From: Microcoleus sp.
GTDB taxonomy: Bacteria > Cyanobacteriota > Cyanobacteriia > Cyanobacteriales > Microcoleaceae
NCBI GenBank assembly: GCA_042408215.1
Contig: JAYFMW010000017.1
Location: 544,001-608,000 of the forward strand
Reading direction: 5' to 3'
Length of the DNA: 64,000 bases
In this document: positions 29,604 through 33,286 of the stretch, in pieces
Numbering within the stretch: position 1 is the first letter of the stretch
How the letters are laid out: each line of letters opens with the position of its first letter
Notes under the pieces: generated by a model
Told to the model about the DNA's origin: nothing
Database searches by the model: none
Seen by the model: the letters and a program-made list of their open reading frames with translations, nothing else
Position numbers and translations under genes: made by a program

Positions 29604-30211
29604 CCGCTCTGTAAAACCTATGCAAATCCTTAACAGGGTTAACTGAACAGGCTGGCTGTTTACTGCTTGCTTCAACGTAGTCTCAAAATGACTCTTGAGA
29701 GGTTTGTCTACTCCACAAGCTTTTCGAGGCTCTTCTTGCCGTTTGATCCGAACGCATCGGAATATAAATTCCTTCAAACCATCCTTCGATATTCTTGGCC
29801 GCATTTAAGTCTCTGTCTTCGGTGTGTCCACAATCAGGGCATACATAGACTCGATCTTTAAGGGGCATCTTATGTCTGTGATTGCCAATTGTAACAGCAA
29901 GTTTTGAGAACTCGAGAACATCCGAGCGATGGAGACAAGCTGACTAGAAAACTTTTCACTCTTGTACTCAAGCTGCCTTCTGAATTCGTACATCCCACAG
30001 TCCGCTGCGCCAGCTAATTTATGATTCTTCAGAAATGCTTTAATTGACAATTCTTCAATCTTGACAATGCCGTGGTTTTTGGCAAGGTGATGAGTTAACT
30101 TATGGATCGCATTCTTGCGAATATTGGCAACTATGGCATGAAGTTTCCCTAATTTAGACACAGCTTTAGCGCGATTCTTGGAACTTTTAACTTTTTTACT
30201 GACACCACGTT
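29604..30211 (-). pseudogene. tnpB: tnpB remnant A (3' half, frameshifted) with IS607-like right end
   Basis: IEELSIK, EFRRQLEYK, CPDCG..DRDLNAAKNI over several frames; minus-strand end ...TGAAGCAAGCAGTAAAC...GGTTTTACAGAGCGG; family assignment from recalled end pattern. Confidence 0.75.
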
Positions 30212-31147
30212 TTGACATACTCCCCACCGATGAATCGGGGGGATTCTAATTCATGACTCATTGAAGTCCACTTGCTACTTCAGGTTTCCCATCGATAGTA
30301 GAGGCGGTCTTCTCCTCATGCTTTCCCTCTTGCGAGGCAGATTCCTTTTTCCCAAATGTACTGTTTTGCCACTCCATCCCTAGCATCTTCATGCCCTTTT
30401 TGAGGATATTAATAGCCGCATTTGTATCACGACAAATCTCTATTCCACAGTGAGAACATGAATGAGTTCTGGTACTGAGTGACTTGGATACTCGATGACC
30501 ACAATTAGAACAATCTTGAGATGTGTAGTTAGGCGAAACTGCCACAACTGCCTTGTCCAAAATTTTTCCGTAGTAGTCCGACCATTGAGTGAATTGATAC
30601 CAACTAGCGTCGGAAATTGACCTAGCCAAGTGATGATTCTTGACCCTAGTCGCAATCTGCAAATCTTCATACACCACGAGATCGTTTGAGAACACTACGT
30701 TTCGGGCTTGCTGAATCGCCCAATCTTTCCGCTGGCGTTGAATTTTGAGATGAACTCTACCTAGTCTTTTTCGAGCTTTGTGATAGTTGTTTGACTGAGG
30801 TTTTGCACCTTTGACAAACTTTTTACTCAACCGTCGTTGCGCTTTTTTTAATTTGCGTTCTGACTTTCTGAGGACTTGGGGATAGATAACAGCATTGTCG
30901 TTTTGGTCTTTGGTGAAATATTTCAACCCTAGGTCCAAACCAACAACATTGCCTGTGTACACTCCTCCCTCTTTGCGTGTGGCATCAAAGCAAAATTGGG
31001 CATAATACCCGTCTGCTCTTTTGATCGCTCCCACAGGGTTGATTTTCAATGTGTGCAGATCTGCCCGCGTTTCATCTGTCTTCCCCCTTGGAGACTCCCA
31101 CTGTACCTGTACCCAGGTCAGTGGCGAGAGGAAAAGGGGGGCAAGGT

Positions 31148-32415
31148 TTATGCTGCATACGAATAACCATCTTTTCTGTGAATAAGTGAACAATATTTTT
31201 GACTAACTCCCGACACCAATTCGGATGCGGAAATATTGAATGAACCACTCGTTCTTACGGCAACACGTCCAACGTATTTACCAATTTTCTTGCCGGAGGT
31301 TACAATCGCTTTAACGATATCTCCCGTTTGAAAACCTTTGACAAATTTAAACCTGGGGACATAGCGAGATGGAAATCCAAACTTATCGGTACGACACATT
31401 TGACCTGTCCCATGCCCAGTCGCTTTAATTAACAATGGCTTGTTTGTCAAGATTTCCAACGAATCAACGTTCCCAACACAAGCTGCATCTAACCAGTGAG
31501 TTTTAGCTAAATTCAATCGAGTGCGGTTGAACTTTGTTAGACCACCACTGCCAGTAGAAACTGGTAAGCCAGTCATGCGGAGTCCATTAAATAATGCCCA
31601 ACGAGTCGAATTAACTGCTGCTGCATCTTTTAACGGACGATGAGCTTGAGATAGAATCTGCTTCAAAATCTCTGGATTTTTAGAGAGGAATTGCTCAATA
31701 CCTTGAGTTCCTTTCTTTTTATTGCATCTTTCACAAGCAAGGCAAAGATTAGAAATGCGATTAGAACCACCCTTAGCTTTAGGATGAATATGTTCGACTT
31801 GTAATGGTGTATTTGTAACACCACAGTAAGCACACTTTCTATCCCACTTGTTGAGCAAGTATTCCCGAACCTCATAGCCACACAAAACGCCTTGCTGGTA
31901 CTCGATTCCCGAAATTTCTGGGTTTTCTACTTGTTGTAAGTCGAACCGTACAAGTTCTTGAACAATAGAGGCAATGGGGGAAAGTTTCATCAATCTAGTC
32001 ACCCAGGTTAGGGTTGTTTCGACACGATGTTGCAAGCTGGGAGCCAGCCACCCTTTAGGGCGATCCCTATTTAGGAACCTCGCTTGACGATAACGAGTAT
32101 GACGATTTCTCCGATTCCGACGCAATGAGCGACGAGATTCTAAAGACGATTTAATTGTTTGACCCCGATGGGTTAATTCAGCACCAAAAATTACGTCCTC
32201 TCCTTGCACTAATGCGATTCGACTGGTTTGAGAACCCGGATCTATTTTAAGAGTGATTGGTTTTTGGGTTGCTGTCACCTCTACTTTCAGAATTAGCGTG
32301 AACGGATACCTTTTTAAAACAGCAGCTTTGCCATTGTTTAGCAATTTACGAGCCAATCCCGGATTGGATTGAGCGGTTGTTTTCTGGTATCAAGTACAAA
32401 AACAAAATTAGACAT
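31148..32415 (-). pseudogene. iscB: IscB nuclease with frameshift just after the PLMP motif
   Basis: MSNFVFVLDTRKQPLNP, IDPGS (RuvC-I), RRSLRRNRR bridge helix, QELVRFD, HNH CAYC..EHIHP..N, HWLDAAC; ATG frame stops after 25 codons, 402-aa frame from 32356. Confidence 0.9.
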
Positions 32416-32663
32416 TTAAGTCCTCCCTTACGGGGTAATGTTTGCTTCGTCAATGTTTAAGGTCGGTAACTATATTAAAAGCACTGGCTTAACCCTTACA
32501 CCTGTTTAACTTTTAATTTCTAGAGCAGAAAACTAGCACGCATTTTCTGGTAGGTACTTTAACGCTTACCTTAAACGTAGTGGGCGAACCACTGAGACTG
32601 GTCAACTTGGCGAATTTCTTGCCCCCACTAGATCGGTACTCCGATTAGTGGTGGGTGGTTGAC
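32416..32663 (-). ncRNA. omegaRNA/HEARO scaffold of IscB copy 1
   Basis: 248-nt non-coding leader starting GTCAAC with complementary GTTGAC, directly upstream of iscB; almost identical to 33287-33534. Confidence 0.85.
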
Positions 32664-33286
32664 CGATTGCTGAGTGCTGCTTTCCTGTGCCGTTTTTTAG
32701 CTTTGCTTCTCTTACTATCATTATGGAATGATACCACACTTAATCACTTTTTATCCGATCTAATTCCCAATAAAGAGAGTGTGGCTAAAGCCGTGGAATC
32801 GCTTATAGGCGACTAAAGCCACAGCCACGTTCATCCCCATGCCTGAAGTCAGGGGCTGTCCGCTCGTCTTTCGGTAAGTGTATTTTGGCACCAGCCTGTG
32901 CTACAGCCTGGTAAAGACCACTGGTATTGTTACACAAACTCCATTATTTTAATGTAGCAGCACGCCAGCTAGCCGCCATGAGATAAGTCTGTTAAAATAA
33001 GATTACATATATTATAAAACTTGATGTAAGCGATCGCCATATATTTTTGAAAGGTGCTTCTGACCCACAAGGGCTTTGATCTCCGCTGCGCGGAAGGTAC
33101 TCAAAAGCATTGGCAACAAGAATTATAATTTCTACAATCTGAACTCGGCGGTGATCTAACTCCCACAAGTCAAAAGTTTCAAGGTCAGTCAAGACTAGGG
33201 CGTCTGAACTCGACGCCAGCAGCCTTTAGGCGACTTGAGTCCCAGTCTCCCCTTTCCAAAATTCAAAGCTACTGCTTTTCCCAGGT

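Follow-up and report, generated by a model that had tools for sequence, protein, structure and literature searches.

A cluster of IS607, IS605-type, and IscB elements in a Microcoleus genome with junctions suggestive of target-to-target deletions

RESULTS

Three element families lie between two host genes

We analyzed a 64,000-nucleotide window of a Microcoleus sp. genome (G000:C17:544001-608000), in which transposable elements of the IS607, IS605-type, and IscB families lie together between two cyanobacterial host genes. Here, G000 is the host genome, C denotes a contig, and other G and L labels denote relatives or element loci. The original prediction had read this cluster as an IscB element inside an IS605-type tnpB element inside an IS607-like tnpB element. 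We found that the three elements and their ends at 29604-32873 are genuine: a tnpB remnant of the IS607 family (element A), an IS605-type tnpB element that follows TTAC and ends in TCAA (element B), and an IscB element. Both inner junctions, however, read as scars left by deletion from one target word to another. The features of the locus are as follows (positions in the window).

29138..29524, minus strand: response regulator (receiver domain), host gene and left neighbor, collinear in relatives
29604..30211, minus strand: remnant of IS607-type element A; last ~155 tnpB codons (frameshifted) and right end, with GG at 29604-05
29611..29614, minus strand: TTAC inside the right end of A; in G005 and G008, the DNA immediately 3′ of this word abuts the TCAA right end of another tnpB element
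30212..32873, minus strand: element B; TCAA at 30212-15, TTAC at 32874-77
30212..30260, minus strand: right end of B; guide-like GAAT at 30246-43, hairpin (z score, -2.45), terminal TCAA at 30215-12
30258..31075, minus strand: 3′ part of tnpB-B, residues ~140-411 of the intact paralog
31071..31075, minus strand: ATGAA, target and target-adjacent motif (TAM) of IscB element 1; site 2 of tnpB-B
31076..32663, minus strand: IscB element 1 (1588 bp); HEARO/omega RNA 32435-32663, iscB ATG at 32415, open frame 32356-31148
32664..32721, minus strand: first 58 bp of tnpB-B; in homologs, ATGA comes next (23/25), followed by 360 bp that are absent here
32722..32873, minus strand: left end and leader of B, with ACAG at the guide position, where most TTAC elements have AAAG
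32874..32877, minus strand: TTAC target of B, in host DNA; also used by a different element in G005 and G008
32878..33286, no strand: host intergenic DNA (the query 32874-33286 matches 66 of 79 genus genomes)
33287..34875, plus strand: IscB element 2, 90% identical to element 1, with two frameshifts and the 3′ flank ATGAC
34909..38190, plus strand: sensor histidine kinase, host gene and right neighbor

Element A has lost its 5′ 219 tnpB codons, as had been proposed for its 5′ half, together with its left end and any tnpA. Its right end, AGAGCGG, stops at 29604. Four paralogs (72% DNA identity) have the same GG end and carry an IS607 serine tnpA directly upstream (transpos_IS607, 180 bits; cut-off, 110), and in relatives that lack the element a run of G occupies the host site. 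The IS607_TnpB profile gave 77 bits on the A fragment and 243 bits on an intact paralog, both below the cut-off of 350. Since this intact paralog stands beside an IS607 tnpA, we take the profile to be narrow. The left end of A is deleted in G000, G005, and G008, and we found no whole allele among the 79 genus genomes.

The predicted ends of element B were borne out: its right end coincides with that of a paralog (C20:282663), and its TCAA end is shared with homologs. The 3′ part of tnpB-B matched guided_TnpB with 189 bits (cut-off, 100), and the Rfam TnpB omega-RNA had no match in the region. In a hairpin search that did not demand TTAC, TTAC preceded 35 of 35 left ends found among 46 tnpB loci, and clean TTAC-class sites showed no target duplication. 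We found that the left-end guide covaries with the target: AAAG with TTAC, GAAG with TCAC, AAAA with TTAT, and GAGA with TCAT, the last in IscB (window 32856-32859; G000:C14:67481-67543; C20:64654-64712; C17 near 451050). The left-end hairpin of B itself is nonsignificant (z, -1.12), and its guide ACAG lies at 32856-32859. Derivatives of the family that carry tnpB alone are called IS1341-type. Element B, with ACAG, may be immobile.

The ends of IscB element 1, predicted at 31076-32663, match those of nine other full-length copies in G000, and ATGA stands 3′ of all ten (8 ATGAA, 2 ATGAC). Its end hairpins have z scores of -3.2 and -4.8. HEARO was found at full length with 133 bits (cut-off, 83), and both copies in the window begin with a full HEARO; the second copy (33287-34875, plus strand) had been overlooked in the original prediction. 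The protein of element 1 gave 433 bits with guided_IscB (cut-off, 175), with RRXRR and HNH found and the N terminus out of frame. The frameshift is a loss of 4 bp near codon 19, and the same loss occurs in 5 of 10 copies (window 32355-32365 and 33585-33590). Given this frameshift, RNA-guided cleavage by element 1 is unlikely. The IscB copies are also mosaics of one another, and the shared 4-bp loss in such patchwork copies suggests that gene conversion may have spread a dead iscB allele.

Every nuclease gene at the locus is now broken, and no tnpA gene lies within it. Elsewhere, G000 holds 20 Y1_Tnp profile matches, 19 of them above the cut-off, as well as IS607 tnpA copies; mobilization in trans, as originally predicted, is right. 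The locus is a graveyard of known nonautonomous elements.

We examined junctions in contigs of four runs from four studies, requiring 31 letters on the short side. The A/B junction was bridged in all four runs, with contigs reaching 35, 35, 35, and ~150 letters past it, and the left-end junction of B was likewise bridged by contigs of four runs from four studies. An assembly artifact was therefore ruled out for these two junctions. Coverage of the two IscB junctions fell just below this threshold, with shorter arms of 23-24 and 30 letters. We also ruled out an inversion between the two opposite IscB copies, as the orientation of 32878-33286 to both neighbors is unchanged in relatives.

Both inner junctions lack DNA present in homologs

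IscB element 1 had been predicted to split tnpB-B exactly at ATCG|ATGAA. We found that it did land in tnpB-B but that the site is not seamless. After removal of IscB, the distance from the tnpB-B ATG to ATGAA is 58 bp, compared with 418 bp in 21 of 25 homologs (415-419 bp in three; not located in one), so 360 bp are missing. In homologs, ATGA is found at site 1, where this segment begins, in 23/25 cases and at site 2, where it ends, in 16/24. L293, which is among the closest homologs (82.6%), has ATGA at both sites.

The insertion of B is not scarless either: on joining its flanks, ~210 bp of host DNA and the 5′ part of A are absent. The TTAC at 32874-77 is common to G005, G008, and other relatives and is therefore host intergenic DNA, ~210 bp outside A. 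The stretch from the response regulator start to the TTAC position measures ~289 bp in most element-free relatives (the best 27 of 65 matches); 26 of them fall within 246-414 bp, and the remaining one has 652 bp. Only 80 host bases are left in the window, so ~210 bp of host DNA were lost along with the 219 codons and left end of A. We read this junction as a later deletion, which weakens a clean insertion of B and not its membership in IS200/IS605. The missing host DNA had no match elsewhere in G000, a weak negative because the queries were relatives at 75-82% identity. The ~210 bp lost in G000, G005, and G008 was part of the divergent promoter region of the response regulator and sensor kinase.

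These results alter the placement of B. The original prediction had joined TTAC to the right flank to read LQRGVSKK in frame with tnpB-A; since this TTAC is host DNA, the join unites two different places. B probably did not insert into tnpB-A, given a left end in host DNA ~210 bp outside A. In G005 and G008, whose flanks are 93-97% identical to those of G000, we found a different tnpB element with its left end at the same TTAC. The TCAA of this element abuts the final 7 bases of A; in the window, these come right after the TTAC at 29611-14. The same left-end TTAC with another right junction makes an insertion of B into tnpB-A further doubtful, and the shared 7-bp right end shows that A was already present before G000, G005, and G008 diverged. 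The left junction at the host TTAC is constant, and the right junction in G005 and G008 has moved to a later target word.

We considered whether true serial nesting (B into tnpB-A and IscB into tnpB-B at site 1) was followed by loss on the left-end side between copies of the target word, through host microhomology repair or left-end exchange on the 4- to 5-bp word. TTAC..TTAC and ATGAA..ATGAA are indeed short direct repeats that coincide with the breakpoints. The two sites of the cynS deletion described below agree in 7/8 bases, and deletions mediated by 4- to 20-bp repeats are common around IS605-type elements of Haloquadratum (PMC3119063). However, this account requires two independent deletions at the same host TTAC, one in G000 and one in G005/G008, and it fails at C6:799165, where the loss was on the right-end side without microhomology (see below). 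We consider it quite unlikely.

Deletions from element end to target word occur at other sites

The hypothesis of right-end deletion was set down before we compared other elements with alleles that lack them. We examined 13 tnpB elements of G000, of which 8 were informative (C11:66042, C5:338999, C6:958109, C6:949830, and C17:449845 were set aside); six of these were clean and two had a deletion. From relatives and metagenomes we took 31 complete elements and set aside 28 that had no paired mapping, flanks below 90%, or the same insertion in G000 (among them L147, with a gap of 0 at 77/89%). Two of the remaining three were clean and one had a deletion. Right-end deletions were thus found at 3/11 informative TTAC-class sites outside the locus, with the far end after TTAC in two and after TTAT in one. 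Four of eight IscB sites were informative, and these had been compared before the hypothesis was set down; C17:708317 and C5:582138 had no empty site, and C10:171009 and C20:209297 were also occupied in G008.

At L210, the element stands in place of 803 bp, and the block in G000 ends exactly in TTAC (flanks, 97%/95%). At C6:467818, 624 bp were lost, and the block ends in TTAC in both G008 and G005. The latter deletion (G000:C6:467818-469156; L326 and L344) removed the promoter region and first 118 codons of cynS, leaving residues 119-147. This is the only cyanase gene of G000, and it is whole in G008. A translocation was ruled out, as the cynS block matches nowhere else in G000. The C6:799165 element is also present in G008 (97.7%), where TCAA is followed by an additional 324 bases, the last four of which are TTAT. 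In G000 the breakpoint cuts through a repeat that G008 keeps intact, so the loss occurred after insertion, on the right-end side and without microhomology. In 180 copies of this repeat, TTAC is the commonest tetramer (67) and TTAT occurs in 16.

The deletions extend from an element end to just past that element's target word. The word TTAC, with a frequency of 1 in 269 bases, stands at 3/4 directly read junctions (P, ~2e-7); the G005/G008 junction had suggested the hypothesis, and the other three (2 TTAC, 1 TTAT) came later. Clean nesting followed by unrelated random decay of neutral DNA is hard to reconcile with these data. Decay is widespread, as many of the 164 tnpB, iscB, or IS607 tnpA loci in G000 are broken, but every deletion begins exactly at an element end and three of the four that were read stop after TTAC. 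We regard random decay as very improbable.

Some sites required individual treatment. The 101-bp gap at C5:323397 was read by eye and scored clean: in G008:C347 (L348), these 101 bp look like an inverted-repeat element with a TA duplication, 2 bp from the TTAC that a tnpB element occupies in G000. C14:111486 was ruled out as a deletion because it is a clean insertion into an iscB remnant. At C8:73466-74824 (L317), a TTAC/TCAA element has a left-flank gene cut after ~60 codons and a right flank that follows TTAC in an 80% paralog. This is probably a further target-to-target deletion, judging from the flanking sequence; its left flank was not found in nine relatives, and the site was left out of the count.

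A proposed TnpA reaction, in trans, between right ends and downstream target words

We lean toward a reaction in which TnpA, acting in trans, joins the right end of an element to a downstream target word and deletes the interval. According to this model, the IS607 element A came first: it had entered at a GG located 80 bp ahead of the response regulator before the lineages of G000, G005, and G008 split, as their shared 7-bp right end shows. A TTAC/TCAA element would then have inserted at the host TTAC at 32874-77, ~210 bp outside A; the site is observed, and the order is our reconstruction. Acting on single-stranded DNA, Y1 TnpA would cleave TCAA together with a TTAC farther downstream that the left-end guide recognizes. 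Strand exchange would join the right end to the DNA past the second TTAC, and the interval would leave as a circle, in what amounts to integration chemistry in cis. In G000, the second TTAC would have lain in tnpB-A, with an estimated ~1.1-1.6 kb lost. In G005 and G008, a later element would have used the TTAC in the right end of A. IscB would have entered tnpB-B at ATGAA, and a reaction at its omega-RNA end would have removed 360 bp to a second ATGA. The geometry of IscB would be the same, its right end in the transposase sense being the omega-RNA end.

Published work on related transposases is compatible with these steps. The IS608 target equals the left cleavage site and is read by the left guide, and end-to-end strand exchange occurs in vitro, as described in excerpts from PMC3201880. 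TnpA tolerates distance between guide and motif and can use a motif that lies beyond the native right end (10.1101/2023.03.14.532601). Single-stranded gaps at the replication fork span 1.5-2 kb in the accessible part of PMC5027513. The deletion sizes fit such gaps.

Several points weigh against right-end deletion by TnpA. Most insertions are scarless (8/11 informative TTAC-class sites and 4/4 informative IscB sites outside the locus). The sole case of known polarity, C6:799165, ends in TTAT and not TTAC. Nearer TTAC words were skipped: four in the cynS block, one in the 803-bp block, and one in the 324-bp block. In 8/24 homologs, site 2 of tnpB-B carries a word other than ATGA. The omega-RNA end of IscB element 2 has 7 bp fewer than in G005 and G008, and this loss, which we count as weak evidence, ends at ATGG and not ATGA. 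A TTAC before the right-hand junction of B is plausible from homologs and is not read directly: among 14 distinct homolog contexts (72-76% identity), 3 have TTAC immediately before the position of the A junction, including L265, whose right end is most like that of A. No intermediate allele, with B intact and A whole, was found among the 79 genus genomes or the four runs. The samples are small, and kin are not independent. Finally, the mosaic IscB copies show that recombination between copies is active.

This last point bears on a different route to the same scars, in which two copies at nearby target words recombine by homology and remove the interval. One example would be a short-range transposition within the same replication fork, after which TnpB or IscB cuts the emptied site. 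Such a history leaves exactly the same scar, cut-and-copy repair is established, and the IscB copies are patchworks of each other. In contrast, the three deletion-bearing tnpB elements of G000 have no near-identical second copy there; their best matches are at 76% (B), 86% (C6:467818), and 83% (C6:799165). The left and right ends of B both match one subtype (the G001 homolog). Two rare integrations within 0.3-1.5 kb would be needed at about one-quarter of sites, and integration is far rarer than excision. We consider recombination between two copies unlikely, and less probable than right-end joining by TnpA.

Deletion resets the predicted guide toward the undeleted allele

TnpB takes its guide from the sequence that follows the right end, and its TAM is identical to the transposase target (PMC8612924). 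Read from the sequences, a right-end deletion resets the predicted guide, such that TAM and guide then match the undeleted allele. At cynS, we found TTAC plus 20/20 guide bases in the undeleted allele, and the adjacent tnpB encodes 396 amino acids with catalytic-looking motifs. At L210, 16 guide bases match, and the tnpB frame ends at 295 amino acids. The present guide of B had no 12-base TAM-plus-seed match anywhere in G000.

Cyanobacteria are often polyploid. We tentatively raise the possibility that IS200/IS605 elements (obligate mobile element-guided activity [OMEGA] systems) may generate deletions at specific sequences and also promote the spread of these deletions. The TAM and target of the reset guide would then exist in undeleted alleles alone. 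In this scenario, undeleted copies of the chromosome would be cut by TnpB or IscB and repaired from a deleted copy, so that losses of host genes such as cynS would become fixed.

IS200/IS605 elements rank with the most abundant elements of prokaryotes, and descriptions of them usually stress that they leave no scar. If roughly one-quarter of sites (3/11, with wide uncertainty) carry deletions of 0.3-1.5 kb that stop at the target word, this would be an overlooked source of sequence-specific gene loss. In practice, joining the flanks of an element is a common way to deduce TnpB and IscB guides and TAMs. The join is wrong at such sites, and this is how the empty-site join of the original prediction was misled.

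Comparison with known systems

Like B, IS608 of Helicobacter pylori has TTAC as its left and target word, TCAA as its right word, a hairpin near the right end, and no target duplication (PMC3201880). In contrast to IS608, B lacks tnpA and has the left guide ACAG instead of AAAG. IS608 is described as excising and inserting with no DNA gained or lost; the scars reported here instead have the right end joined past a second target word. The IscB elements resemble those of ISGst in Geobacillus stearothermophilus, with an omega RNA upstream of iscB, mobilization in trans, and the TAM TTCAT at the left end in the transposase sense (Meers et al., 10.1101/2023.03.14.532601). In contrast to ISGst, IscB element 1 is frameshifted and replaces 360 bp. 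Meers et al. report an alternative right boundary at a word like the transposon-encoded motif (TEM) after mutation, but not a flank deletion to a target word with the element kept. Element A shares with the IS607 family, in the text accessible for 10.1101/2023.11.20.567912 (serine TnpA, GG core), its GG end, a host G run, and tnpA-bearing paralogs; it differs in that only a 3′ remnant is left.

Deletions beside IS605-family elements have precedents. In the plasticity zones of H. pylori, deletions and inversions end at such elements (IS605 and ISHp608), but the part of PMC2731543 available gives no breakpoint motif, end polarity, or link to guide RNA. In Haloquadratum, nesting into IS605-type elements is common, with 192 cases, 170 of them into palindrome-associated transposable elements (PATEs) or IS605-type elements; unlike here, the deletions that the available portion of PMC3119063 describes hit element cores between palindromes and not flanking DNA. 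The accessible portions of PMC3333891 and PMC7290912 hold nothing on flank deletions. We found no right-end-to-target deletions, or guide reset by them, in the literature searched, with most subscription papers outside the search. Early IS605/ISHp608 papers and in vitro work on IS608 reportedly describe adjacent deletions or single-end transfer, so the basic right-end reaction may already be known. The three-family nest is itself ordinary, and the motif-to-motif deletions are the part of interest.

No preference of the elements for each other's nuclease genes was found

The original prediction had proposed serial insertion of elements into each other's nuclease genes. We found no sign of such seeking: 3 of 55 delimited elements abut tnpB or iscB coding DNA at a junction (4 with one divergent case that the test missed), and such DNA makes up 2.5% of the G000 genome. 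We infer that this share is roughly what purging of host-gene insertions would give.

Other clusters of elements were seen in G000. A second three-family pile-up lies at G000:C6:1054700-1057940 (L255), where an IS607 tnpB element sits immediately ahead of a divergent iscB-like gene. Codon 77 of that gene holds a TTAC/TCAA element, beyond which only ~70 bp of the host element remain; the IS607 element is absent in G008 and L175. The TTAC/TCAA junction there (C6:1056506) fits the deletion pattern, had no intact homolog, and was left out of the count. At G000:C5:296519-299158 (L257), a gap of ~10 bp separates a TCAC-end tnpB element from an IscB element, on the omega-RNA side of the latter. In the window itself, run X8 has one extra base in tnpB-A at 29884 and several other differences, which indicates that strains with slightly different decay of the locus exist.

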